Assembly (NCBI GenBank): GCA_018239785.1
Contig: JAFEGQ010000062.1
Span: forward strand, 1 to 35,827
Length of the DNA: 35,827 nucleotides
Direction of reading: 5' to 3'
DNA from: Verrucomicrobiota bacterium
Lineage (GTDB): Bacteria; Chlamydiota; Chlamydiia; Chlamydiales; JAFEGQ01
Positions 1-33,045 of this stretch are shown here, one piece after another. Under the pieces are notes generated by a model. The model saw only the letters and a program-made list of their open reading frames with translations. It did not search any database and had not been told where the DNA came from. Made by a program: the position numbers and the translations under genes. Position 1 is the first letter of the stretch. Each line of letters starts with the position of its first letter.

Positions 1-820
1 AAGGGTGTTTCCGCTCAGGGCGATATTGGGTGATCAGATCAATATGCTCTAAGAGCGCCTCTAAGGGGTCGTGGGAGAGAGGAGGGAGCCCCTGTAATGC
101 TCGCTCGATGTCGTGTCCAATCCAAGGCTGCCCCATCGCCCCCCTTGAACATAAGATGGTATCACACTCCGTATGGGCAAACATGTGGAGCGCCGACTCA
201 GGGTCGAAGATATCTCCATTGCCCCCCACCTTGATGGTCTTTGCGGCTTTTACAGCCTGCGCAATCACGTCGCGGTCTGCTTTCCCCTCATACCCTTGTT
301 GGCGGGTTCTGCCGTGGATGCTGATCATCTGAGCGCCCGCTGCTTCGGCAATCGAGACGATCGTTGAGGCATTGATAGAGCTGTGATCCCAACCGATCCG
401 AATTTTGACGGTTACGGGAATTTTAACGGCCGCGCACATGTTGGAGATGATCTCCCCGATCCGCTCGGGTTCTCGCAACAGGGCAGAGCCAGACCCATCC
501 TTAGTGACCTTGTCGACAGGGCAACCGCAGTTGAGGTCGACCACATCAAACCCCAAATCTTCAATGATTTTTGCACAAGGAGCCGCCAAGTCTTTGCGAC
601 TGCCCACAATTTGTGCGCCGATCGGATGCATTTCCTCGGTGTATTCGAGGTAGCTGAGCGTCTCTGGGACCTCTCGGACCAGCGCTTCCATTTTGACCAT
701 CTCACAAAAGACGAGGCCGCGGTGGCCGTGACGCCGCGCCATCAGCCGAAAAGGGACGTCGCTACACCCAGCTAGTGGGGAGTAGATAATTTTTGTTAAA
801 GGATGATTAGAAGCAGCCAT
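1..820 (-). CDS. dus: tRNA-dihydrouridine synthase (Dus family); C-terminal end runs off the window
   Basis: Absent from the supplied ORF track because it has no stop codon in the window. My minus-strand translation from the ATG at 820..818 reads MAASNHPLTKIIYSPLAGCSDVPFRLMARRHG...VDLNCGCPVDKV...VKIRIGW...SIHGRTRQQGY...GGNGDIF...SRGAMGQPW and stays open to position 2. These are typical Dus motifs. The plus-strand ORFs 30..332, 173..367 and 383..775 are shadows of it. Confidence 0.85.
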   Translation of the reverse strand, partial: MAASNHPLTKIIYSPLAGCSDVPFRLMARRHGHRGLVFCEMVKMEALVREVPETLSYLEYTEEMHPIGAQIVGSRKDLAAPCAKIIEDLGFDVVDLNCGCPVDKVTKDGSGSALLREPERIGEIISNMCAAVKIPVTVKIRIGWDHSSINASTIVSIAEAAGAQMISIHGRTRQQGYEGKADRDVIAQAVKAAKTIKVGGNGDIFDPESALHMFAHTECDTILCSRGAMGQPWIGHDIERALQGLPPLSHDPLEALLEHIDLITQYRPERKHP

Positions 821-6314: not shown

Positions 6315-6902
6315 CTAAGTAAGAGAGGCAAAAGCCATAATCTTTTCAGCAGCTTCTCTAGGTGAGGAAACATGCGTCTCTATTCTTAAGTCATACGCGA
6401 TATCGACATGGACCTTGTGAAACTGTCCTCTTGCAGACCCTAAGATGCGATTCCCTCGTTCTCTTTCTCTCTGTTCTAAAATAGCAAGAGGGGCGCTGAC
6501 TCCCACCCATAGAACTTGGAAATTTTTTAATGTCTCTTTCCACTCTTCTATATACTGTTTGCTGTAAGCAACGTCATCGATAATCAAAGGATGTCCCATG
6601 TTTGCAAGGAGGAGAGCGACTTCTCGAAATGTTGCGTTGATTTTCTCAGCATAACGGCCAACTTGCAGTTCATAAATCAGGTTGCCAGCTATACCCAATT
6701 AGCTTCAAGAATTGGTTTTCTACCCAGGAGCTGTTCCTTCCCCTGTCCAATCATTCAATTTTTCTGGCATCCATCCAATGATCTTGTCGATGCCGATATG
6801 TAGGAAAGGTTCTTCAAGCGCATGTTGCAAAGCTTTTGCAAGTGTTGTCTTGCCGCTACTCGATGGTCCATTGAGAAAAATGATTTGAGGTGCTGTGCCC
6901 AC
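6315..6902 (-). pseudogene. chloramphenicol phosphotransferase-like (CPT) P-loop kinase, disrupted
   Basis: Track ORFs 6720..6902 (P-loop IIFLNGPSSSGKTT) and 6315..6698 (LIIDDV...VLWVGVSAPLAILEQRERERGNR) are in the same frame and together span a full-length CPT-like protein. They are separated by TAG, TGA and TAA within 9 codons (6699..6722). A different frame (SSWVENQFLKLIGYSWQ) is open across exactly this stretch. Confidence 0.65.
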
Positions 6903-7978: not shown

Positions 7979-9793
7979 ATGCAAGGTCGTATTCGCGTTT
8001 TAGATGAGCAGCTGATTAACAAAATCGCTGCGGGTGAAGTGGTAGAAAATTCGGCCTCTGTCGTTAAGGAGCTCGTTGAAAATTCCATCGATGCAGGAGC
8101 CTCTGAGGTGGGGGTCTGGATCAAGGCAGGGGGACGGCAGCTCATTCGGGTGGCCGACAACGGCTCTGGTATGGGGCGAGATGATGCGTTGCTCTGCTTG
8201 GAAAGGCATGCCACTTCCAAAATTCGGGCAGCTGAAGATCTCGTGGAAGTGGCGACGTTGGGGTTTCGCGGGGAAGCCGTGCCCGCAATCGCCTCTGTTT
8301 CAAAACTGACCCTTTTGACAAATCCTGCACAGGGGATGGGGACCGAGCTTTGGATCGAAGGGGGCAAAATCCAACGCTGCCTTGATGCCGCCAGATCTCT
8401 TGGGACCACCTTTGAGGTGGCGGCCCTTTTTTATAATACTCCTGCTAGGAGAGCTTTCCAAAAATCCATCTCCCACGATGCGCATGAGGTGGAGCAGTTA
8501 TTGCAGACAGTGGCTCTTGCTTACCCCCATACTCGTTTTGATTTAACGAGTGATGAGCGCTTGTTATTTTCCTACAGAGCTGAAGAGGGAGAGCTGTTGG
8601 TCGCTCTAGGAGAGCGGATCAAAAAGGTGCTCGGAGAGGGGCTGTGGCGCTCCTTGAGAAAGGTGGATTTTAAAGAGGAGGGAGTTTCCATTTGGGGCTA
8701 CATTTCAGAGCCCGAGTGCACAAAACCCAATAGAGGAGGACAGTATCTGTTTCTCAACGGACGAGCCATCACCTCTCCTGCGGTCTCTGAGATGGTGAGA
8801 ATGGCTTACGGGAGTCGTTTGCCCGAGCGGAGACACCCCCTTTTTGTCCTCCATTTGCAACTGCCTGGCGCATGGGTTGATGTGAATGTCCATCCTCAAA
8901 AGAAGCATGTGCGCATCCGCAATGAAAAGGAGCTTCAAGATTGGATCTTTGCAGCTATGGAAGGGGCGTGGCCTCTGCCTAAAAGAGGAACGGTATTGCG
9001 CGCCTGTGAACCTCAAGTTCCTTATGTTCAGGTATACCCAAATGACCTGAAGAATTGGGATTTGGGCCGCGTTAAAGCCCCGGGGTTCGACGATCTCAAC
9101 CCGCCCAATATTACTAATATTGAACGGGTTGAGATCGTCGAACCGCGGGAGCTTTCACGCAGGCCCAAAACCAATTCTTCAGGTCATTTTGGTATAAGTG
9201 ATTTCCTTGCGTCTCCTCTCCCCTATTCTCCCCCTTCTGCCAACGCACAGCCTTCTTTAGTGGAAATTCCTGCCCAGGTACTGGGGCTTTATGGCCGTTA
9301 TCTCCTTGTCGATGGAGAGTCTCTTGGGGAGGGCAAAAAGGGGTTGGCTTTTGTCGATGTCTTAGCGGCGAGAAGGAGGATTCTCTACGAAGAGCTCATC
9401 ATGGCGAAGAGACAAAGTGGAGCGCAGATGCTCCTCATTCCTCTAACCATTGACTTGTTGCCTGCGGAAAAAAGGGCTTTAGAAGAGCGGCAAAAAGAGC
9501 TCGAGGCTTTGGGAATAGGGGTCCGTTTTTGTGGCTCCCATTCTGCACTGATTGACGCTGTGCCAGCCCATGTGGAGATGGAGGCAACGGAGGATTTTTT
9601 GCGCGCGCTATTGGCGACAAAAGAAGAGCTAGCTGTCGTTGCGGCGATGCGAGGCGCTGTGAGTTCACAAATCTCATCGACAGAAGAGGGGCGAAGGATC
9701 TTGCAGCGCCTCTTGAAATGTGCCGTCCCCTTTTTTGACCCCAAAGGAAAACCTCTAATCGCTTATCTTGAGCCTAAGGAGCTTTTTTCATGA
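7979..9793 (+). CDS. mutL: DNA mismatch repair protein MutL
   Basis: 604 aa with a GHKL ATPase N-terminus (LINKIAAGEVVENSASVVKELVENSIDAGAS, ADNGSGM, LGFRGEA) and a C-terminal dimerisation domain. Confidence 0.95.
   Translation: MQGRIRVLDEQLINKIAAGEVVENSASVVKELVENSIDAGASEVGVWIKAGGRQLIRVADNGSGMGRDDALLCLERHATSKIRAAEDLVEVATLGFRGEAVPAIASVSKLTLLTNPAQGMGTELWIEGGKIQRCLDAARSLGTTFEVAALFYNTPARRAFQKSISHDAHEVEQLLQTVALAYPHTRFDLTSDERLLFSYRAEEGELLVALGERIKKVLGEGLWRSLRKVDFKEEGVSIWGYISEPECTKPNRGGQYLFLNGRAITSPAVSEMVRMAYGSRLPERRHPLFVLHLQLPGAWVDVNVHPQKKHVRIRNEKELQDWIFAAMEGAWPLPKRGTVLRACEPQVPYVQVYPNDLKNWDLGRVKAPGFDDLNPPNITNIERVEIVEPRELSRRPKTNSSGHFGISDFLASPLPYSPPSANAQPSLVEIPAQVLGLYGRYLLVDGESLGEGKKGLAFVDVLAARRRILYEELIMAKRQSGAQMLLIPLTIDLLPAEKRALEERQKELEALGIGVRFCGSHSALIDAVPAHVEMEATEDFLRALLATKEELAVVAAMRGAVSSQISSTEEGRRILQRLLKCAVPFFDPKGKPLIAYLEPKELFS
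9033..9196. repeat. 164-bp near-perfect palindrome embedded in frame in the mutL linker (REP/RPE/MITE-like)
   Basis: I paired the arms base by base around centre 9114. TATACCCAAATGACCTGAAGAATTGG...GGTTCGACGATCTCAACCCG...CAATATT pairs with AATATTG...CGGGTTGAGATCGTCGAACC...CCAATTCTTCAGGTCATTTTGGTATA. Each ~80-bp arm has only a handful of mismatches and three 1-nt indels. Confidence 0.85.
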
Positions 9794-21140: not shown

Positions 21141-21614
21141 ATGAGATATGTCCTCCTCTTAATTGTCATGTTTCCCCTCTTTGGCGAGGTGGCGCTTCCC
21201 TACAGTGCGCCGCCGCCTTCCGCCACCTATGAGGCAGCGCAGCGCTACATTCGCTTTAAAGACCGCGCCGAAGCTTACCGCGCAGAGGGGAACGATAAGA
21301 TGGCCGATCTTTACGACAGGCGAGCTCGTCAAGCGGAAAAGCAATTGAATGGTGCAGAAGGGGGCGAGCATCGGGGGTTTGCCTCTAGGATTCAAGAGGA
21401 GCGCGCTTGGCGCGAAAAAGAGCTCTCCTATCAGCGGCGCCGTGCCAGGGAACCTGGGACGATGACAGCGCGTGAGTCGCAGATCGAGCAGATGACTGGA
21501 GGGAGCTGGCAGACGCTTCCCCATCAAGGGACCTCTTCGGCAAAAAAACGGCAGTATCTATGGCCTTATAAGCAAGGGATCTTTCCTCCCAACGACTACT
21601 CCAACGGCCGCTAA
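21141..21614 (+). CDS. hypothetical secreted, charged protein
   Basis: 157 aa with an N-terminal hydrophobic leader followed by R/E/A-rich helical sequence. I recognise no homology. The antisense ORF 21159..21527 is treated as its shadow. Confidence 0.4.
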   Translation: MRYVLLLIVMFPLFGEVALPYSAPPPSATYEAAQRYIRFKDRAEAYRAEGNDKMADLYDRRARQAEKQLNGAEGGEHRGFASRIQEERAWREKELSYQRRRAREPGTMTARESQIEQMTGGSWQTLPHQGTSSAKKRQYLWPYKQGIFPPNDYSNGR

Positions 21615-22609
21615 TTTTGTGTGCGCTCGAGGTAAAACGCCCACTGTATAGAGTTCTCCTTATTGTCCCACTGACATTTCCCGGTTAGCTGGTAAGCTTT
21701 ATGCAATTGATTATTGAATTTCGTCCAATTTAAAGCGCTGACATCTTCGAAGATCTTAGCAGGCGTATTAATTGAGTCAAGGGTGTGTTTGATGACATAA
21801 GAAGCATTTTCAAATATGCTCCATTTTAAATCTTTCATTACGGCATCTGTTTTTTGTCCTGAAGCGAAATTCATAAAGATCCGATCAGGTTTTAAGGTAT
21901 TCACAATTATAGTCACCGCTTCTTCATTAAAATTATCTATACTTCCATGTAATTTTAATTTTGTAATTTTAATATTATGAGTAGTCAATAGATTTAAATC
22001 TAATGAGTTGGGATCTTTGAGCTTGACAGTGTCAAAATGGCATGCGTTATTTTTGCTGTTTTTTGCAGTAGAGTCTAGGAGCGCCTTCTTTATATTTTCA
22101 CTGAGATCTTCCGGGCTTATATGGTGAATCGACCAATTCTTGGGCAACAACTTGATTGCGTTCAGGAGCTCTTGATCTTTCTCTTCGTAGTCACTCACCT
22201 CGATCACGAAGGGGTCAGGAGGGCAATTTCCCCAATTGATTTCCTCAATTTGAGAGTCACCTGGAAGCATTTTAATGATATCCAAAAAGCAATCTTTTCT
22301 GTTCGTAGAGGGATCTAGAGCAGAAAGATCGAGAGTTTTGTCATTTTTATGCGCTTCAAGCCATTGGTGGAGTTCTTCTTGAGAGGAGAACTTTATTTTT
22401 TGTGTAGAGGGGATGAGAGTGCTAGCTAGAGCGGCAAAGGCGCAAGCGCTGCCGCCAAGGAGGGTAACTTTTTTATCAATTTTTTTCGCGAAATAGGCTG
22501 TTGCAAAGGCTCCAACTCCTAGAAGACAAAAAAGGGAGAATGGTTTTTTAGGCGAGATGTCAACCGCTGTTGAGTGTTGCTGCGAAGGGGAGATATTCTG
22601 GTTTTCCAT
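21611..22609 (-). CDS. hypothetical membrane protein with Inc-like bilobed hydrophobic domain
   Basis: 332 aa from a visibly AT-rich gene. Two closely spaced hydrophobic lobes (FSLFCLLGVGAFATAYFA-KKIDKK-VTLLGGSACAFAALASTLIP) lie near the N-terminus, followed by a ~260-aa soluble domain. Confidence 0.5.
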   Translation of the reverse strand: MENQNISPSQQHSTAVDISPKKPFSLFCLLGVGAFATAYFAKKIDKKVTLLGGSACAFAALASTLIPSTQKIKFSSQEELHQWLEAHKNDKTLDLSALDPSTNRKDCFLDIIKMLPGDSQIEEINWGNCPPDPFVIEVSDYEEKDQELLNAIKLLPKNWSIHHISPEDLSENIKKALLDSTAKNSKNNACHFDTVKLKDPNSLDLNLLTTHNIKITKLKLHGSIDNFNEEAVTIIVNTLKPDRIFMNFASGQKTDAVMKDLKWSIFENASYVIKHTLDSINTPAKIFEDVSALNWTKFNNQLHKAYQLTGKCQWDNKENSIQWAFYLERTQN

Positions 22610-22702
22610 ACAGACATTCCTGGTCTAAAGTAGTGCTCACATTCTAATATATTTATGATTTCTTTGCAATTTACTGCCTCTACTGCCAGCCCCTGATCCT
22701 TA

Positions 22703-22768
22703 AGTTATATCAACTTATACACGATTATACTGGATTTCGTGTATAAACGTGTATAAGTTGATATAACT
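22703..22768. promoter_or_regulatory. perfect 21-bp inverted repeat with 24-bp spacer, 14 nt upstream of the ATPase gene
   Basis: AGTTATATCAACTTATACACG (22703-22723) is the exact reverse complement of CGTGTATAAGTTGATATAACT (22748-22768). The spacer contains TATACT and a partial third copy, CGTGTATAAA. Confidence 0.6.
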
Positions 22769-22781
22769 AGAGGCAAAAGCA

Positions 22782-23957
22782 ATGAATCCCATCAAGAATC
22801 CTTTTTCACCCGGAGCCGGCTCCCCTCCGCCTGAATTAGTGGGACGCGATTTCATCCTGGAACAAGCGCGCATTCTTTTAGGTAGGACCAAAAAGAAGCG
22901 TTCTGAAAAAAGTTTGTTGCTTACAGGACTTCGAGGAGTGGGGAAAACGGTCCTCCTCAATGAAATTGAAGGTCTGGCGAAGGACGAGGGATACAAGACC
23001 ATCTTCATTGAAGCTCATGAGAACAAAGCGCTTGGCCTTTTAATTGCTCCCTATCTTCGCAATCTTCTCTTTGACTTAGATCGACTTGCTGGAGTGAGCC
23101 ATAAGGTAAAGCGAGGACTTACGACCCTCCGAAGCTTCATGAGTGGACTTCATCTCACTGTGGGGGAGATGACGATCGGATTTCGAGCAGATTCTGAGCA
23201 AGGACTTGCCGACAGCGGGGATTTAGAGATCGATCTGCCCAGCCTTTTCATTGCCATTGGAGAAGCTGCTGAGGATCGAAAGTGTGCGGTAGCGATCTTC
23301 ATCGATGAAATGCAATATTTTAGCCAAAAAGAATTTGGAGCTCTCATCATGGCCATGCATAAGGTGCAACAACTTAAGCTGCCTCTCGTGCTGTTGGGAG
23401 CGGGGCTCCCCATCCTCCCTTGGCTTGCAGGAGAATCCAAGTCCTATGCTGAGCGGCTTTTTCATTTTCCAGATGTTGGAGCCTTATCGGAAGAAGAGGC
23501 AGCTATTGCCTTGAATGAACCAGCCCTTGCTGAAGGGGCGACGTTTGATCCTGCGGCTCTTCGCGAAATCTTTCGCCTGACAAAAGGATATCCCTATTTC
23601 CTTCAGGAGTGGGGATATCAAGCATGGAACGTAGCAAAGGCAAGCCCGATCACTTTAAAAACGGTTCAAGAGGCGACAGAGGCAGTGATTTATCAGCTCG
23701 ACAGGAATTTTTTCCGCGTCCGTTTTGATCGCCTCACTCCAGGGGAGAAGAACTTTTTACGTGGGATGGCAGCTCTGGGGCCTGGCCCTTACCGGATGGG
23801 AGAGATAGTAGACTTGTTGAAGGTCAAACCGACGAGTTTAAGTCCAATGCGCTCTAGGCTGATCCAGAAAGGGATGATTTATAGTCCAGCGTATGGAGAT
23901 TTGGCATTTACAGTTCCCCTATTTGATGAATTTATGATGAGGGCAATGCCCCAATGA
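22782..23957 (+). CDS. AAA/STAND-like ATP-binding protein with C-terminal winged-helix domain
   Basis: 391 aa with N-terminal NPFSPGAGSPPPELVGRD, Walker A GLRGVGKT, Walker B AIFIDEMQY, and a C-terminal wHTH-like LTPGEKNFLRGMAALGP...MGEIVDLL. It resembles the Arch_ATPase/AAA_16 type. Confidence 0.65.
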   Translation: MNPIKNPFSPGAGSPPPELVGRDFILEQARILLGRTKKKRSEKSLLLTGLRGVGKTVLLNEIEGLAKDEGYKTIFIEAHENKALGLLIAPYLRNLLFDLDRLAGVSHKVKRGLTTLRSFMSGLHLTVGEMTIGFRADSEQGLADSGDLEIDLPSLFIAIGEAAEDRKCAVAIFIDEMQYFSQKEFGALIMAMHKVQQLKLPLVLLGAGLPILPWLAGESKSYAERLFHFPDVGALSEEEAAIALNEPALAEGATFDPAALREIFRLTKGYPYFLQEWGYQAWNVAKASPITLKTVQEATEAVIYQLDRNFFRVRFDRLTPGEKNFLRGMAALGPGPYRMGEIVDLLKVKPTSLSPMRSRLIQKGMIYSPAYGDLAFTVPLFDEFMMRAMPQ

Positions 23958-27000: not shown

Positions 27001-29341
27001 GAGCCGGCAAACCCTCACCTACAAAGACGAGCAAGGGCATCTCTTGCACGAAGAGCAAAGAGATGCCCAAAATCATCTCCTCTCCCAAGTCGATTATTTT
27101 TACGATCTCAATGGCAACGAGGTCAAACAGGAGCACCAAGTCCTCTCTGAAGGCCAAATACTCCGCACTTACGCCTTTAGCAACACCTATGGCCCAGGCA
27201 ATTTACTCATTCAATCCACAGAAGGGCTGACGAGTGAATTACCCCGCATCACTCGCTATTTCTACGACTCTGCAAGCCGCCTCAACTGCACCATCAAGCC
27301 AGACGGAGCCCATCTCTACAGAACCTATGATGTCTTAGGCCGCCTTGCCTCTCATGAAGGACCCGATTTTTCGTACACTTACACCTATGACGCAGCCGAT
27401 AACCTCATCGCCGTCAACGACGTTTCTAGATCCTACGATTCCCACAACCGCCTTCTTTCTGAAACAACTCCCTCAGGCACTATTAGCTGCCAAAGAGATC
27501 GTTTAGGTAGACGCACCCACCTCTCCTACCTTGGCCAAGAGGTCAGCTACACCTATCGAGGGCCTTATCTCGCCACTGTTTCCTCTTCCCGCTTGACCCA
27601 CCGCTATCTCGAATATGACCTCGAAGGAAGACCCACCTTGGAGCAATTGCCAGGCAATTGCGGGTCGAGAAGGCGAGAATACGACCCTCTTGGCCGCCTC
27701 ACCCATCTCGACACCGACTATTTTGTCCAAGATCTCGCTTACGACGCCGCCTCAAACCTCACCGACCTCAAAACTCGCTCCTGCTATTTCAGCCGCTCCT
27801 CGATGAACTACGCCTGGGAAGAGAAAGAGGAGAAGTTTGTTTTCGACCCCCTCGACCAGCTCCTCTCAGAGCCTGATGCCACTTATGCGCACGACTCCAT
27901 CGGCAATCGCCTTGTCCACAATGACGATAGCTACAGTTACAACGGGCTCAACGAGCGTCTAGAAGATCCTTACGACCTCTGTGGCAGGCTTTTGCAAGTC
28001 GGCTCACATACCTGTTCCTTTGACAGCCTTGACAGACTCATTCATCTCGACGACAGTTATTTCAGTTACGATGCCTTCCACCGCCGAGAAGATTTGCTTT
28101 ATGACGAGCAGATGGAGTTAGGAGACGCCAAAAACTTCCGCATCCTCGGAAGGGCCCCCTCTCGAGATATCGGAGCGATGGTCCTCGCCATGCTCGATGG
28201 CCTCACCTTTATTCCCATCATGGACCACTTGGGTTCCGTAGTGGCTCTTGTTCTCCCCGATGGTCGCCTTTGTGAAAGGCGCCTCTACTCTGCCTTTGGG
28301 ATCCCTTCAGAGGAGAGCTTTTACCAAAATCCTTGGGGCTTTTGCTCGAAGCGAGCAGAAGGGGAGCTTCTCTTCTTTGGCCGCAGATACTATCACCCCC
28401 CTTCTGGAAGATGGATCAGCCCCGATCCAGCAGGACATGCCGATGGGCCTAATCTCTACGCCTATTGCCACAATAACCCCCTCGGAGAGATCGATCCCAC
28501 GGGTTTATATTCCCTAGTTGACAGAGAGCGCTACTACAGGTCGCAGCCAAATTATTACTTCGATCGCAAACCGGATATCAAAGCTGCACCAAAGTCTGGA
28601 TGGTTAAAGTCCACCTACCAGACCGCAAAAACTCACTTTTTCAGCACTCTTGCTAATCCTCGTGTGCAAGGGGGACTGCAAGCTTGCGTAGGGCTTTCCG
28701 AAATGTTTGCAGGCGGCGCAACGACTTTTGGGAGTTATGGGGTGGCAGCTCCATTAGGATGGCTGGCCGTAGGGCATGGGGCTGATCAATTCACGACAGG
28801 GATGAGGCGCATCTTCAATAACCGCCATCAATTCACTGCTACTGAACATCTGCTCCATAAAACGGGCATGTCTTCAGGCGCAGCAGCTTTTACTAACGGT
28901 ATGCTAAGCTTTACGACGCCTACGGCTGCTCTGAGCATTGCTCGTAGCGCGAGGTATGGCGAACAGACCGTTACGAGACTTTTGTCTCATAGGAGTTCGG
29001 CAGTAGCAGAAGCTGAGGGATGGGTGCTTCCTGCAAATGGAGGAGGCTCTTGGATTAATGGCCGATGGTACACTGAGCATGCATTGGAGCGTATGGCGCC
29101 CAGAACACCAGAAGTGATGGCTAAATTGGAAGTGCGCAGCTTAGCAAGAGCACGTGCTCAAGGTATTTTACCCAGGACAGAAGCATATGGGGACTGGTTG
29201 GCAAAAGGCAACGGCCCTGCTCCTCGAGGGATACCGCCATTAGTTGTTGAAGCTGAAATCGCTCATCCTAGTTCCACTAGTGTGCGTGTATTTTTAAGTC
29301 AAAAAGGGGATGTGATCACCGTTATTCCTGGAGGGCAATGA
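24008..29341 (+). CDS. Rhs/YD-repeat polymorphic toxin with Sec signal peptide and variable C-terminal toxin domain
   Basis: 1777 aa. It has a signal peptide (MKSFLIACFLFISLSANPETC) and a DUF6531-like N-terminal motif (GCVDVVSGAYIASTAEVTV..EPITLYRHL). Dozens of YD repeats follow (YDPLDRVIKEIDPQGGVTEVDY, YTYDAQGRKITE, FDERSRVISQTDPLGRKTYFTFD). The Rhs core ends in GRRYYHPPSGRWISPDPAGHADGPNLYAYCHNNPLGEIDPTGL, with DPTGL at residues 1496-1500 (nt 28493-28507). A 277-aa tail comes after it. Confidence 0.92.
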   Translation: MKSFLIACFLFISLSANPETCPISPMTVAIEPIGLIHGCVDVVSGAYIASTAEVTVNCHEPITLYRHLISCRESKDSYSFWQIGKEYIDFSAPAHARGETSGFFRLIGEKGEVENFILLPNQKGWGFQNRDKPFALRCQSFSSNTSYGEMSGRTHPGNYMLNYGPPPVIKKEVAAGNVSFSRLDPSNWRDGRFCPLPSAPIAQCRFFSDYGSYSFTLQTGSGEVRIYTHGRQPWSDYKHWKDGENREPKQETFLLREVRRPNGNRVFYFYDEKDRLIEICSVNRALDQTFGWIRISHYSGGATITTSDGQAITYRTKKISSNSKSKYVLSEVHGMGGTREDIGYHVAKRAKNPFAITSHCFEGSGLCAEYYPETEAWNACLLSGRVKKLDVHLRGRGVRNLYSFAYQENGPGYFNQTFVTDAEGGEVVYMKDLRRLIRVTKLNKQQPFFVLNQAWGVNNLLIARSIEGKSCVGSPFEPYVSHRFKYDDRRNVTEEALSGHLTGRGQWEGYPTNYTYSEDGFNLPLSQTTDSQRIINSYRPGTDLLIKRQIYEGDQLKEEIFLDYDDNAGVILKTHHIGSVTFLEETKRRADGMPLAVTQKTPSSQLHRTIFHYNERNQVIQTDHFDAHDAYLYSLFTEFDERSRVISQTDPLGRKTYFTFDPRNNPLTTYIEGIPTEICCEYDPMNSLAKKVLRDLVTGAEQIERYERDKMGRETARITPLGAKITYLRDAHGRILEEQQVPLRTPEGWKAPLIIREYDPLDRVIKEIDPQGGVTEVDYTARNEWCLKKHPDGTLEKRYFTLEGQLEEEIHKDGSSTRYTRDYKGRILSSQRCDGAGQVLIEETFIYDGDLLLQHTDPRGFTAHYSYNEAGQLLQMRKEDQLTEYTYDAQGRKITELSWSDPQHYLLKRLEYDLLDWITAEQLEDETGKVYQRNETIYDLAGNVIKTSTLLSSTTTDYDSFSRPIRQEDALGQVTTISYAEVPFEGQTVRLTTTTDPVSRQTLTYKDEQGHLLHEEQRDAQNHLLSQVDYFYDLNGNEVKQEHQVLSEGQILRTYAFSNTYGPGNLLIQSTEGLTSELPRITRYFYDSASRLNCTIKPDGAHLYRTYDVLGRLASHEGPDFSYTYTYDAADNLIAVNDVSRSYDSHNRLLSETTPSGTISCQRDRLGRRTHLSYLGQEVSYTYRGPYLATVSSSRLTHRYLEYDLEGRPTLEQLPGNCGSRRREYDPLGRLTHLDTDYFVQDLAYDAASNLTDLKTRSCYFSRSSMNYAWEEKEEKFVFDPLDQLLSEPDATYAHDSIGNRLVHNDDSYSYNGLNERLEDPYDLCGRLLQVGSHTCSFDSLDRLIHLDDSYFSYDAFHRREDLLYDEQMELGDAKNFRILGRAPSRDIGAMVLAMLDGLTFIPIMDHLGSVVALVLPDGRLCERRLYSAFGIPSEESFYQNPWGFCSKRAEGELLFFGRRYYHPPSGRWISPDPAGHADGPNLYAYCHNNPLGEIDPTGLYSLVDRERYYRSQPNYYFDRKPDIKAAPKSGWLKSTYQTAKTHFFSTLANPRVQGGLQACVGLSEMFAGGATTFGSYGVAAPLGWLAVGHGADQFTTGMRRIFNNRHQFTATEHLLHKTGMSSGAAAFTNGMLSFTTPTAALSIARSARYGEQTVTRLLSHRSSAVAEAEGWVLPANGGGSWINGRWYTEHALERMAPRTPEVMAKLEVRSLARARAQGILPRTEAYGDWLAKGNGPAPRGIPPLVVEAEIAHPSSTSVRVFLSQKGDVITVIPGGQ

Positions 29342-29661
29342 AGGTAGATATTATGGAAATGACTTCATTTTTTGATGAATTAGATCCTTATAATGATGAT
29401 GAAAAAAAAGTTTATGGATTTAGATCTTTTCGCAGTGATTATTTAACTATAAAACTTGGAATTTCTGTTTATGAATCTAAAGTTGCTATTAGCATTTATA
29501 AAGATCTTAAAATATCACTTGCAAGTTTTTATCTTAACGGATGCTTAGAAATAAATGTTTTAGATGAGGCGTGCAAATGCTTAGAAATTATCCACGAAAT
29601 TAAAAATGAAAGATGCATCCTCTCTCTTTATGGGAGTCCAATTCTACAGTATCAAGATTAG
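29338..29661 (+). CDS. candidate cognate immunity protein (paralog 1)
   Basis: 107 aa. The ATGA start/stop overlaps the Rhs gene. It is strongly AT-rich and is a paralog of the 30672..30998 product. Confidence 0.6.
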   Translation: MKVDIMEMTSFFDELDPYNDDEKKVYGFRSFRSDYLTIKLGISVYESKVAISIYKDLKISLASFYLNGCLEINVLDEACKCLEIIHEIKNERCILSLYGSPILQYQD

Positions 29662-29676
29662 GTAATCTTATTAAAA

Positions 29677-30672
29677 ATGAAAAAAATAGTATATTTCGAT
29701 CCTTCTGCTAAAAAAATGAAAAGCAGAATCTATGGCACTACAGCAATCATTTTATTTTTAGCGATGTTGCTGATAGATGTTGCAAATGCTCGAGGTGACA
29801 CTCGCCATCAGGCGGGGGCGTTATTAATAGAAAACATCTATTTACTTGTGCCCTGGTGCTTGGCTTATTTGCTCGTTGCGCGCTATAGAATTTTTCTGAA
29901 AAAGTTTATCCCAATTTATCTATGCTTAGCACTTTTAGTAGCCGCTGCTTCGCAATTTGTTCAGAATGAAAACATACGCATAAATCAAAAAAAGAGATTT
30001 AACGCTGAAGCTGTAAAGATAATGCAGTATTCACTTAATGGACAAATGGCTGATCCAACCGTTCAATTGCCTACGAGTTATTCATCTGAACAATATGGAA
30101 AGGAAGCTAAAGCTTTAAATCATTTGAAGGAAATGGCCGAGCTTTCTCAACAAGAATGGATATTCGTTGCTCAAACTTTTAATGCAATGCATTTAGATCA
30201 GATTTTTTCCGAGAATTTCATTTTCAACTTGTCGGAGATCATTAAGAAAAAGAGAGAGGTTCAAGGATTTCTTAAATTTCTCGATGAAAGTGAAAAAAGG
30301 ATGAGGAAGATCCACTTCCATTGGATTCGAAAAACCCTGTCCTCTATGAGAGTTGAAAATCCTCTAACAACTGATGTAGAGGCAATTTATTCTAAGAGTG
30401 TTCAAGAGCATGGGATTTCTTTTGAAAAAACATTGAATATGTGGAGAAGATTTGCCCAAGAGCATCTGGGTCTTCTCAATGCCCTAGCGGATGCTTATGG
30501 AAGTTATGAAATAGATGAAAATAATGATTTGGTTTTTCTTGATTTTGAAGACGAGCTCAATTGTAACTTGCATCTAAAATATATAAGAAAAATTAGGCAG
30601 GAATCTCAAGATTCTGAGCTGTTAGCCCAACAGTACATCTCAAGTCTACAACAAAATGGCACCGGAGGCTAA
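29677..30672 (+). CDS. hypothetical 3-TM membrane protein with helical C-terminal domain
   Basis: 331 aa from an AT-rich gene. It has three N-terminal hydrophobic helices (AIILFLAMLLIDVANA, IYLLVPWCLAYLLVA, IPIYLCLALLVAAASQFV) followed by a ~220-aa charged, helical region. I recognise no family. Confidence 0.5.
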   Translation: MKKIVYFDPSAKKMKSRIYGTTAIILFLAMLLIDVANARGDTRHQAGALLIENIYLLVPWCLAYLLVARYRIFLKKFIPIYLCLALLVAAASQFVQNENIRINQKKRFNAEAVKIMQYSLNGQMADPTVQLPTSYSSEQYGKEAKALNHLKEMAELSQQEWIFVAQTFNAMHLDQIFSENFIFNLSEIIKKKREVQGFLKFLDESEKRMRKIHFHWIRKTLSSMRVENPLTTDVEAIYSKSVQEHGISFEKTLNMWRRFAQEHLGLLNALADAYGSYEIDENNDLVFLDFEDELNCNLHLKYIRKIRQESQDSELLAQQYISSLQQNGTGG

Positions 30673-30998
30673 TGAACGTTGATATTACGGCGCTTCTCAT
30701 TGTTTTTGATGAGCTGTTGTCATCGACCACTGAGGAGCAAGGAATCTACGCGTTTAGAACACGCAGAGAAGATGGAATTGCTGTTATTTTATCCTTTTCT
30801 ATTCACGAAGGTTCCGTGGATGTTGTTGTTCAAAACAACTCAGGGATCGACATTTCTGTGTTTAAATTAAAAGATTGCTCTGAGATTAATGTCTTAGATG
30901 AAGAGCGCAAGTGCTTGGAAATTTTGCGCAGAGATGGAAAAGGGCGGTGTTTTATCTCGTTAATCGGAGATAGCATCGTGAACTATACAAAAGAGTGA
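30672..30998 (+). CDS. candidate immunity protein (paralog 2)
   Basis: 108 aa. The TAATG start/stop overlaps the 331-aa ORF. A gapless alignment to paralog 1 gives about 41 identical positions out of 107 by my hand count (M.VDI...FDEL...Y.FR...C.EINVLDE..KCLEI...RC..SL.G..I..Y). Confidence 0.6.
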   Translation: MNVDITALLIVFDELLSSTTEEQGIYAFRTRREDGIAVILSFSIHEGSVDVVVQNNSGIDISVFKLKDCSEINVLDEERKCLEILRRDGKGRCFISLIGDSIVNYTKE

Positions 30999-31100
30999 AA
31001 CAGCCTTGTTCAAATCGCGCGGCGCCGCTTGACCCAAGTTCAGGGGTTTTCCTAGAGAGAATCGGTCGAACTTTGAGTGATTCGACACTACGGGTTGAAA

Positions 31101-33045
31101 TCAGACTATAATTTTTTTAGCTTTTGAGATCTGTGGTGAGATCCCAATAGCCTTGTAAATCTCCTTTTGAGACTCTTCGGCTTGCGTTGTACTGCGGTGA
31201 TAAAGGACTTGCCCCTGCTCTAATTTGGCGCACATTGTGATGCGCATGCGGCGCCAGAGGCGATTGCGGAGGGTAGGCCAGTGGTGGAAGAGGTTGCCGC
31301 GGTGACACTGGTACAGGCATGCTTGGATGAGTTGGTAGGCCAAAAGGGTGATCCAAAGGTGTCCGTCAAGGCGTTCTTTTTTCTCATGAAAGATGGGGCG
31401 CAATCCCAAGGAGGACTTCATAAAGCGGAAGGCATCTTCGACTTTCGCAAGGGAGCGATAGATTTCCCAGAGCTTTTGCAGAGGTTCGTTGAGGAGGTTC
31501 GTACGGAGAAAGTAGGAGCCGTTAAGTTTGGCTTCGAGTTTTTCTGGGAGGGGTTGCCATTCGATGGCTGTGGCGATTTGCCCATCTGTTGAGTGGACAT
31601 GGACCTCATAACATCCTGAAATGCGTTTGTGCTTTTCCTTTAACCTTCCGACTCTTTCTAAGATTTTTCCGAGCTTCTTGCGGCAATTGGGGCGAGTGAG
31701 TCCTTCTGCTAATTTTTGTAGATCGGCTTCGAATCTGGTGCAAAAGAGGGTTTTTATCTGCCCGGCAACGGCCTCCTTGTCGGGAGATTCGCAGTAAAGC
31801 CACCTCTCCTCGGAGTCTGTGGTTTTGACCAGAGCTCCTTTGACGTGAGAGTCCCCGAGGAGGACCGGAGGGGCTTCGAGTTCTTCGGAGGGGGGATCTT
31901 GCCTGGCAACAACGATGTAATGGAAATGGTTATCCCTCAACCACGTGAGGTTCTCCTCTGTTGCAATGCCGGCGTCCATGACAATGGTGGGTTTGAAAAG
32001 ATTGCCAGGGACGTTGAGGGCTGCTATCGCCTCTTGCAGGGTTTTTGGCTCAGAGATGTTGCCTGGCAAAAATGAAGAGTGTTGTGTAAATCCGTGCTCA
32101 TTCACGACAAGGCGCAGAGTGATGAGGGGGCAGTCTGAGCGCTTTTCTTTGGACCCGCCCCTTTTTGCATTGGGATTAGCAGTGGCTCGCCCTTCCATAT
32201 AGGTATTAACCTGAGTTTTGGGTTGTCTTCCTCGCAGTCAGAGGGATTTCGCGTCGAAAATCTCACAATTTTTCCCGAAGCCCCTGAATGTGAGGGAGAA
32301 AAACCCAAAACTCAGGTTATTAGATAGGTCATAGAGAATGAGGGTGCTTCGATAGCCGTGGAGGGTCTGCTGGGCCTCTACGAAATGCTTTTCGAGCTCT
32401 TCTTTGTGCTTCAACAGTTTGTCGCTGATCGCGTAGAGATGGTCTAGAGTGGTATTGGCAAAATCGAAGTTAAGCAACTCTCCTAAAGCGCTGGTCTGGA
32501 GAAGCCAATCATAAGTCGCTCGTTCGCTAGATGGGAAGATGGCCCTTCCCAAGATGGACCCTAGGCTCAGGGCGATTTCCTTCTCAGAGAAGCCGAGTCC
32601 TTTGAGAGTTTTTGGCAATTGGAGCTCAGAGGCGAAGTGCAAGAGGAGGTGCTCAGCGCCGACTGTTCTGGGCTCTTGGGTCTCGACGCTTTGTAGGTCA
32701 ATGGTTGCGTAGTCAGGCTCTTGGGGGACTTCTTTTTCCCCAACGCGGTTGAGCAGTCGATGGGTCAGCTCCTGAGTGTATCTGTGAGCTAGGCGCTCTA
32801 TTTCTTCAGGACAAGGGAAAAGAGAAAGAGTTCCGTTAAAGATCTCTTCGATTCTGTTGGCAAGGAGCTTGAGCTCTTCTTTTTTTAGGTCGAGGTCTGC
32901 ATCCAGAGAGAGGAGAATCCTCTGCCTTGCTTCTTTTCTGTGAGCACCGGTTCGACGAGCTGGTAAGAGAAGTAGTCTTTTTGCGTTTTCCGCTCTGTTT
33001 TTCTAGTTTTTCTAATGAATATGGGTCCAATGATAGAGGGTTGGC
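31101..33045 (-). pseudogene. IS1634-family (IS4-like) DDE transposase gene, decayed
   Basis: The C-terminal part 31101..32198 carries (TY)MEGRATANPNAKRGGSKEKRSDCPL, IVMDAGIATEENL and RPIFHEKKERLDGHLWITLLAYQL. The middle part 32238..~33000 carries ...VGAEHLL...STLILYDLSN and is separated from the C-terminal part by the 111-bp insertion. The N-terminal ~60 codons are spread over three frames (LEKLEKQSGKRKK / DYFSYQLVEPVLTEKKQGR / QRILLSLDADLDLKKEE), which implies at least two frameshifts. Element ends were not identified. Confidence 0.75.
32208..32318. mobile_element. 111-bp MITE-like insertion inside the IS1634-family transposase gene
   Basis: It has perfect 17-bp terminal inverted repeats, AACCTGAGTTTTGGGTT (32208-32224) and AACCCAAAACTCAGGTT (32302-32318), with further imperfect pairing to ~29 bp. 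It is flanked by direct ATT copies at 32205-32207 and 32319-32321. Removing the element plus one ATT (114 nt) fuses ...LILYDLSN to TYMEGRATANP... in frame, which restores the conserved LYDxxNTYxEG region. Confidence 0.8.

Follow-up and report, generated by a model that had tools for sequence, protein, structure and literature searches.

The window analysed here, a 35,827-nt stretch of contig JAFEGQ010000062.1 (assembly GCA_018239785.1, with positions counted from its first letter), carries a 164-bp near-perfect palindrome within the reading frame of the mismatch-repair gene mutL. We consider it very likely that this palindrome belongs to a family of small mobile elements, apparently undescribed so far, which extends across environmental Chlamydiota. 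Homologous copies, ~75-80% identical to that of the window and with the same ends and length, are found in independently assembled genomes and in unrelated sequence contexts, and the family occupies ~170 places in ~20 metagenome-assembled genomes (MAGs) of Chlamydiota or the Planctomycetes-Verrucomicrobia-Chlamydiae (PVC) group. Several of these copies, like the one in mutL, lie in frame inside protein-coding genes. We propose that the palindrome would be a non-autonomous transposable element, specifically a miniature inverted-repeat transposable element (MITE) of ~164 bp with ends TATACC...GGTATA, which forms a single long hairpin. The coordinates of its parts and of the host gene are collected in Table 1.

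A repeat search of the window returned two nested inverted-repeat pairs centred on position 9114 (9028-9081 with 9148-9201, and 9079-9113 with 9115-9149). When folded as single-stranded DNA, the segment 9020-9210 forms one hairpin of -82 kcal/mol (z = -17.9), whereas 200 dinucleotide-preserving shuffles gave -22.1 +/- 3.4 kcal/mol and none of them was as good; the corresponding RNA fold of the palindrome has an energy of -125.6 kcal/mol (z = -17.3). Between 9033 and 9196 there are 73 base pairs, with 18 nt left unpaired, and the two arms differ from each other by ~7 substitutions and three single-base indels. The segment has the size and the ends usual for a MITE, being shorter than ~300 bp, without a transposase gene and bounded by terminal inverted repeats (26 nt, one mismatch). 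At 164 bp it is too short for any open reading frame (ORF) of transposase size, and in a six-frame translation the mutL frame alone is open across it, so its sole ORF is a read-through in one phase.

Relatives of the palindrome were sought with successively derived patterns. A scan of metagenomes with a 19-mer common to both arms gave 15 loci, three of which (L119, L121 and L122) had multiple matches to the terminus, and the remaining 12, with one match each, were taken as chance. L121 (JACCED011097027.1) is chlamydial and encodes a topoisomerase I, whose C-terminal tail we take, by eye, to be a SWIB domain; it holds a 175-bp element with the same termini and a different interior, further copies at contig ends and one copy in frame within an ORF. 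A degenerate terminus pattern, ATACYNAAATNACYTGAAGMATYGG, written from six termini, then matched 49 loci in a collection of species-representative genomes, and nearly all of these are labelled as Chlamydiae, Verrucomicrobia/Verrucomicrobiota or unclassified 'uncultured bacterium' MAGs, with one Acidobacteriota; a single match in Lentibacillus looks like chance. In those loci there are 36 complete inverted pairs in which the left terminus of the window copy recurs, almost all ending in TATAC...GTATA and most of them 164-165 bp or 174-179 bp long. Two of the MAGs have interiors homologous to the window copy (~80% identical over 120 nt), and an interior motif taken from their copies, GGGAGCTTTCRCGYMRGYCCAAA, led to at least 118 further loci, essentially all chlamydial. 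By comparison, scanning genome contigs with an 18-nt central motif gave chance matches in high-GC bacteria only, as the motif is too short. No family copy was found in the viral contig collection, which was searched with two patterns, or in the plasmid collection.

An nhmmer search of all fetched loci with the window copy produced 300 matches at 174 distinct places. The assembly CAMAVL01 accounts for at least 109 of these in the 472 kb fetched from it, many at contig ends, followed by CAMAUB01 with 13 places and MGME01 ("Chlamydiae bacterium RIFCSPLOWO2_12_FULL_49_12") with 10, including the copies most similar to that of the window, and ~17 other assemblies have between one and six places each. 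Among the carriers of the family are complete or near-complete chlamydial assemblies (OY970179.1, the 1.9-Mb contig of CAVQHD01, and CAVSSM01). CAMAVL01 is deposited as 'Chlamydia trachomatis isolate MaH-04nov19-293', a species label that is clearly wrong. Copies with clean ends range from 116 to 196 bp, with 164 bp the commonest length (29/68) and 165 bp the length of 13/68. We aligned 44 distinct copies from many lineages (alignment A2, also the basis of the family profile), and 44/44 start with TATAC and finish with GTATA, five invariant columns at either end; the terminus takes the general form TATACC[C/G]AAAT.ACCTGAAGAAT.GG. When run against the window, the family profile matches the full copy with E = 6.8e-44 on the plus strand and 3.3e-30 on the minus strand, the plus orientation being the better. 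In CAMAVL01 many copies are composite, with a left terminus that belongs to one subtype (TATACTGCAGTCGGCC...) and a right terminus that belongs to a different one (...GACCGAGTTGGGTATA), for example at L210:6562-6725, L196:7704-7867 and L256:2334-2497, which suggests recombination between copies.

The sequence-only reading of this stretch had described a 164-bp near-perfect palindrome in an uninterrupted mutL frame, and the repeat search and folds returned the same coordinates and geometry; the peptide that it quoted for the insert is also exact. It had further raised the possibility of a dispersed family in this genome. The family is indeed dispersed across genomes, with homologous full-length copies at the ~170 places described above, and for the source genome itself the count covers the 35.8 kb of the window, in which there is one full copy and one 30-bp remnant.

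Insertion most likely takes place at a TA dinucleotide, which is duplicated in the process. The filled site L141:2232-2408 has an element-free paralogue in the same locus, 86% identical, in which the empty sequence reads ...ccccattTAcacggcaaaa... with a single TA, whereas the filled one reads ...ccccattTA[TACC...GGTA]TAgccggcaaaa..., with TA on either side. This arrangement, TA versus TA[element]TA, is that expected for duplication of a TA target. The flanks of the copies show a symmetric preference, A(T/G)T before TA...TA and its reverse complement A(A/C)T after it, with T at position -1 in 47/87 copies (p = 2e-7) and T at position +3 in 40/87 (p = 2e-4), and no conserved direct repeat was found in the copy flanks outside the TATAC...GTATA ends. 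Moreover, every 164-bp copy situated in a long ORF keeps the frame of its host on both sides, thus the net gain must be divisible by three, which is the case for 164 - 2 = 162 bp, or 54 codons. We infer that the mutL copy likewise duplicated a TA, in which case it would have added 54 codons, and its precise excision would leave ...CAGGTAAGTGAT...

Most copies of the family are intergenic, with ~8 of ~90 clean copies inside long ORFs, and insertion is seen in either orientation. The in-frame copies are in genes of quite different kinds. In L145 the host is a protein with DUF4172 and Fic domains (Pfam), and the copy sits between the Fic domain and a C-terminal segment, which by eye we take to be a winged helix; in L225 it is an amine-oxidase or protoporphyrinogen-oxidase-like flavoenzyme; in L142 a protein of 1449 amino acids, autotransporter- or Pmp-like as judged by eye only, where the copy comes just after an apparent signal peptide; and in L136 a proline-rich protein of 649 amino acids. 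Further in-frame copies are found in L259, L222 and L121. The phase used in mutL (TA/TAC/...) is free of stop codons in 40/74 strand-copies of the 164-bp class, whereas the two remaining phases are open in 18 and 8, and by our own calculation ~7% of runs of 54 random codons would be expected to be stop-free. The three in-frame cases that belong to the subfamily of the window copy share the same element orientation and phase, and the 54-residue peptide carries conserved KAPG...PRELSR segments. A profile of five such peptides, when searched against 5.8 billion proteins, returned 19 short hypothetical proteins only, and it is unusable as a census of in-frame copies because the window's own MutL was not recovered. 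The public 'hypothetical proteins' of 50-97 amino acids (P0121-P0139) are mere translations of intergenic copies.

In mutL the element encodes residues 352-406 (VYPNDLKNW...SSGHFGI). Pfam recognises DNA_mis_repair at residues 214-328 and MutL_C at residues 451-549 of the window protein, and an AlphaFold2 model, based on the MutL alignment, is confident for both domains. The insert was placed in a disordered linker because the model gives residues 335-429 a predicted local distance difference test (pLDDT) score below 50 and no secondary structure. The best MutL matches among 5.8 billion proteins are only ~45% identical, and one of them is named Chlamydiales, which together with the chlamydial MAGs that carry the family points to a Chlamydia-like host organism. 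When 19 homologues were aligned with the window MutL, the interdomain region was unalignable, variable in length and non-conserved, and the four relatives with the same N-terminal signature as the window protein (P0005, P0006, P0007 and P0031) are 544-572 amino acids long and without the insert, which compares with 550 amino acids for the window protein minus its 54 extra residues. The suggestion of the sequence-only reading that ~55 residues were inserted into the poorly conserved MutL linker is therefore borne out, the ~54 residues in question falling in the non-conserved linker and being absent from the closest relatives. Its comparison to the in-frame, coding-tolerant Rickettsia palindromic elements (RPEs) has also found support, in that copies elsewhere are in frame inside several real genes.

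A second trace of the family is present in the window, 2.3 kb from the full copy. The family profile matches positions 6690-6732 (E = 1.7e-4) where a solo terminus sits in frame within a chloramphenicol-phosphotransferase-like gene (minus strand, 6902-6315). Its translation, *KTNS*S*LGI, resembles the KTNSSGHFGI with which the mutL insert closes, and contains stop codons that split the gene. If the 10 remnant codons are left out, the two parts together form a protein that aligns to PF07931 (CPT) from position 2 to position 169 of 172 (E = 6e-39). This match had been regarded as chance (24/30 positions), a view that was dropped after the translation, Pfam and profile evidence. Taken with the mutL copy, the remnant means that the family has struck this 35.8-kb stretch at least twice, once harmlessly and once disruptively.

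From these data the following course of events can be proposed. An element of this kind would be mobilised in trans by a transposase encoded elsewhere and would insert at TA with duplication, so that a 164-bp copy would add 162 bp. One of its phases (TA/TAC/C..) is stop-free in about half of the copies, hence a copy landing in that phase would lengthen a protein rather than truncate it. The window copy would have come to lie in the MutL linker, disordered and variable in length, which connects the ATPase/transducer part with the dimerisation domain, and the mutL reading frame would survive because this linker tolerates extra residues. Given the terminal inverted repeats and the TA target, our guess would be that the mobilising enzyme is a TA-duplicating DDE transposase of the IS630/Tc1-mariner type. 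IS66 fragments in L121 (2.1 kb between termini, with tnpB and pieces of tnpC by eye) were rejected as a partner, as these are truncated and in opposite orientations, as the contig there is probably folded back and as the ends of IS66 differ from those of the family. In the same locus (L121:1-2711) the first ~277 nt are an inverted duplicate of 2435-2711, each meeting a family terminus, which is probably an assembler fold-back at an inverted repeat.

Some of what we observed weighs against reading the palindrome as a mobile element inserted into mutL. MutL-based locus searches of the sequence collections yielded no remainder of the source genome, no close relative and no empty mutL allele, and with the nearest MutL at ~45% identity there is thus no empty allele for comparison. 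The copy count for the source genome comes from 35.8 kb, with one full copy and one remnant. The TA duplication is read from one paralogous pair, itself 86% identical, and a second candidate empty site (L256:1140-1250, compared with the filled L210:6562-6725, flanks 79% identical) reads TAGGTA, which may reflect either an excision that left a footprint or simple divergence. Across the 1.1 Mb of fetched loci there was no recurrent transposase beside solo termini, nor any element of 0.6-3.5 kb bounded by family termini. Finally, the C-terminal motifs of the window MutL deviate from the chlamydial consensus, as considered below.

An additional question is why the hairpin has persisted. For alignment A2, RNAalifold gives a single predicted hairpin along the full length, with 69 pairs, and compensatory double changes are seen in 37 of them. 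Paired cells amount to 96.5%, against 86.1 +/- 0.4% when columns are shuffled and 26-41% when partners are slid by 1-3 columns; cells changed on both sides number 312, against 97 +/- 8 in shuffles and 19-41 with slid partners; and the covariation score is 0.306, against 0.122 in shuffles (0/500 as high) and 0.021-0.047 with slid partners. Particular bulges and arm mismatches recur from lineage to lineage, and so does a GGGAGCTTTC block with 9/10 positions invariant in the 44 copies; since wholesale copying of one arm onto the other would erase such asymmetries, it appears to be excluded. Subfamilies with unrelated interiors are likewise long hairpins. All of this, together with the stability of the 73-bp RNA stem, would favour an explanation in which the hairpin is itself a functional module, for example a stem cleaved by RNase III that lowers mutL mRNA, a protein-binding cruciform or a structure required for mobility. 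Such a role is compatible with the MITE reading, but we think it improbable. No Rfam 15 family matches the window at gathering thresholds, where only sub-threshold, generic hairpins resembling microRNA precursors were seen, and in a rough tally of pair types the excess of G-U (~60 cells) over A-C (~40 cells) is too slight for a clear preference, which leaves no strand signal that points to RNA. Moreover, copies occur in either orientation and mostly between genes, and many CAMAVL01 copies have mismatched terminus types, from which it follows that the outer stem is dispensable for persistence. Short-patch mismatch correction in extruded hairpins could also yield covariation, as could selection on structure, for mobility or for a role in the host. 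In its widest form, which is equally doubtful in our judgement, the hairpin would be a selected structural module of a phylum-wide family, acting as the substrate of an undescribed hairpin-recognising mobilisation or as a regulatory stem (e.g., an RNase III target that tunes host genes, including mutL and with it the mutation rate). If that were true, the conserved bulges and GGGAGCTTTC would be binding or processing determinants, and the 54-residue peptide would be a portable linker cassette.

Alternatively, the insertion may have inactivated or crippled MutL, in which case the gene would be decaying towards a pseudogene and the lineage might be a mutator. The window protein has DVLAARRR (residues 460-467, in a deviating region of residues 460-472, nt 9356-9394) where the chlamydial consensus has DQRAAHAR, and FFDPKGKP (residues 585-592, nt 9731-9754; DPKGKP being residues 587-592) in place of xQCPxGKP, with the loss of a nearly invariant Cys. 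A very stable hairpin would also be present in the middle of the mRNA, and the same family visibly broke a neighbouring gene. However, the frame of 604 codons is intact with no internal stop, the alignment shows that all N-terminal ATPase motifs and many invariant residues of the C-terminal domain are kept, and both domains are modelled with confidence. The insert-free relatives P0005, P0006, P0007 and P0031 show a similar or partial loss of the DQ(H/R)A motif, thus the drift of this motif is either older than the element or independent of it, and the MutL endonuclease site may, judging from these sequences, be non-canonical in the lineage of the window. We therefore hold a crippled MutL to be unlikely and would expect the protein with its insert to be still working. 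As for the palindrome having arisen locally, by inverted duplication of the linker or as a fold-back artefact of assembly unrelated to any mobile family, the presence of just one full copy in the window would fit, but copies with the same ends and length and ~75-80% identity in many independent assemblies and unrelated contexts, as well as the intact mutL frame and flanking domains, leave this explanation with next to no probability.

On the reading that we prefer, that of a MITE family, the closest parallels lie outside the Chlamydiota. RPEs are palindromic repeats found in frame inside protein-coding genes (PMC10969869). Both RPEs and the chlamydial family are dispersed palindromic repeats of ~100-170 bp in obligate intracellular hosts, and both are found repeatedly in frame in unrelated genes, with one open phase and at fold-compatible places. 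They differ in the host phylum (Chlamydiota here, Alphaproteobacteria for RPEs), in that the chlamydial copies are mostly intergenic whereas RPE-1 is described as mainly intragenic, and in the sharp TATAC...GTATA ends and evidence for a TA target of the chlamydial family, which we would regard as an analogue of RPEs and not a member, the comparison being to the description of RPEs. Protein-coding palindromic repeats with the same likeness have been reported in Wolbachia.

The Correia elements of Neisseria (Correia repeat enclosed elements, CREE, or Neisseria miniature insertion sequences, NEMIS) are MITEs of ~100-155 bp whose terminal inverted repeats, ~26 bp long, start with TATA. They insert at TA with duplication of TA and can number a hundred or more in one genome. 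Their transcripts form long hairpins that are cut by RNase III in Neisseria, and they are essentially intergenic, with effects on promoters, integration host factor (IHF) sites and mRNA processing and not as in-frame coding insertions. The TA-flanked ends, the long hairpin and the ~26-bp termini starting with TATA are also features of the chlamydial family, which differs in its host phylum and in having in-frame coding copies. The 26-bp Correia terminus reads TATAG[C/T]GGATTAACAAAAA..., and we take it to share only TATA with the chlamydial terminus, so that the chlamydial family is presumably not a member. Neither RPEs nor Correia elements have a known transposase. Like MITEs of the IS630/Tc1-mariner type, the family is small, is bounded by terminal inverted repeats, has a putative TA target with symmetric AT-rich flanks and leaves solo-terminus remnants, but its inverted repeat spans the whole element and not 20-30 bp, and no related full-length insertion sequence or transposase was found in the 1.1 Mb of fetched loci.

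A full-text literature search returned no MITE or palindromic repeat family described for Chlamydiae, and the phylum goes unmentioned in a 2024 review of prokaryotic MITEs (PMC10969869). By analogy, then, the chlamydial family would behave like an RPE, in its in-frame insertion, and be built like a Correia-type MITE, and would belong to neither by sequence or host.

The survival of palindromic repeats in coding genes is a phenomenon known chiefly from Rickettsia, and from Wolbachia. The independent family in Chlamydiota suggests repeated acquisition of such elements by obligate intracellular bacteria, and the reasons might lie in relaxed selection, in small population sizes and in protein linkers that tolerate additions. 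There are also practical consequences, as the family causes breaks in metagenome assemblies, where many contigs from a single MAG end inside copies, and gives rise to spurious hypothetical proteins of 50-97 amino acids and to 54-residue additions to real enzymes, which confuse annotation and alignment. More than 170 copies with strong covariation make up a data set on the upkeep of long palindromes in bacterial genomes, and the mutL copy provides a concrete, testable link between a mobile hairpin and a mismatch-repair gene.

Table 1. Features of the window that concern mutL, the palindromic element and the second family remnant.
Feature	Position (nt)	Residues	Strand	Basis
Host gene mutL, 604 amino acids	7979..9793		+	ORF, homologues, Pfam, AlphaFold2 model
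MutL N-terminal ATPase and transducer domains	7979-8968	1-330	+	homologues, Pfam, model
MutL disordered linker		335-429	+	AlphaFold2 model
MutL C-terminal dimerisation domain	9278-9790	434-604	+	homologues, Pfam, model
Full-length copy of palindromic MITE-like element, 164 bp	9033..9196		+	fold, family profile, alignment
Left terminal inverted repeat, TATACCCAAATGACCTGAAGAATTGG	9033..9058		+	pairs with right end, 1 mismatch; 0 expected by chance
Right terminal inverted repeat, reverse complement TATACCAAAATGACCTGAAGAATTGG	9171..9196		-	pairs with left end
Outer TA, left, putative half of duplicated TA target	9033..9034			suggested by L141 empty site and in-frame hosts
Outer TA, right, putative second copy of TA target	9195..9196			suggested by L141 empty site and in-frame hosts
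Apical loop, 3 nt, symmetry centre of hairpin	9113..9115			predicted fold
Solo terminus of the same family, ~30 bp	6690..6722		-	terminus pattern with 3 mismatches, family profile, translation

Other repeats and compositional features were also seen in the window. At 22698-22773 a 76-bp palindrome, whose 33-nt arms are 91% complementary and separated by a spacer of 10 nt, occupies part of the 170 bp that separate the divergent ORFs 21611-22609 (minus strand) and 22782-23957 (plus strand). It is a possible operator or regulatory site, and the fetched loci yielded no copy of it. A 119-bp segment at 32204-32322, just downstream of ORF 31101-32198 (minus strand), is bounded by 28-nt inverted repeats (86% complementary). 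It was considered as a diverged copy of the family and rejected, as the family profiles give no match, and it has a 41-nt partial match (83%) at L219:116-156, in a chlamydial MAG; it could be a second small repeat family. The region 29001-31000, which contains ORF 29677-30672, has a low GC content, 0.38 versus ~0.50 elsewhere, and may have been horizontally acquired. Outside the window, a short palindromic repeat, cattagccaaaaaaagtttttggctaatgtgactttgtcaag, recurs in CAMAVL01 beside family copies, at L176:7730-7775 and in the left flank of L210:6562.

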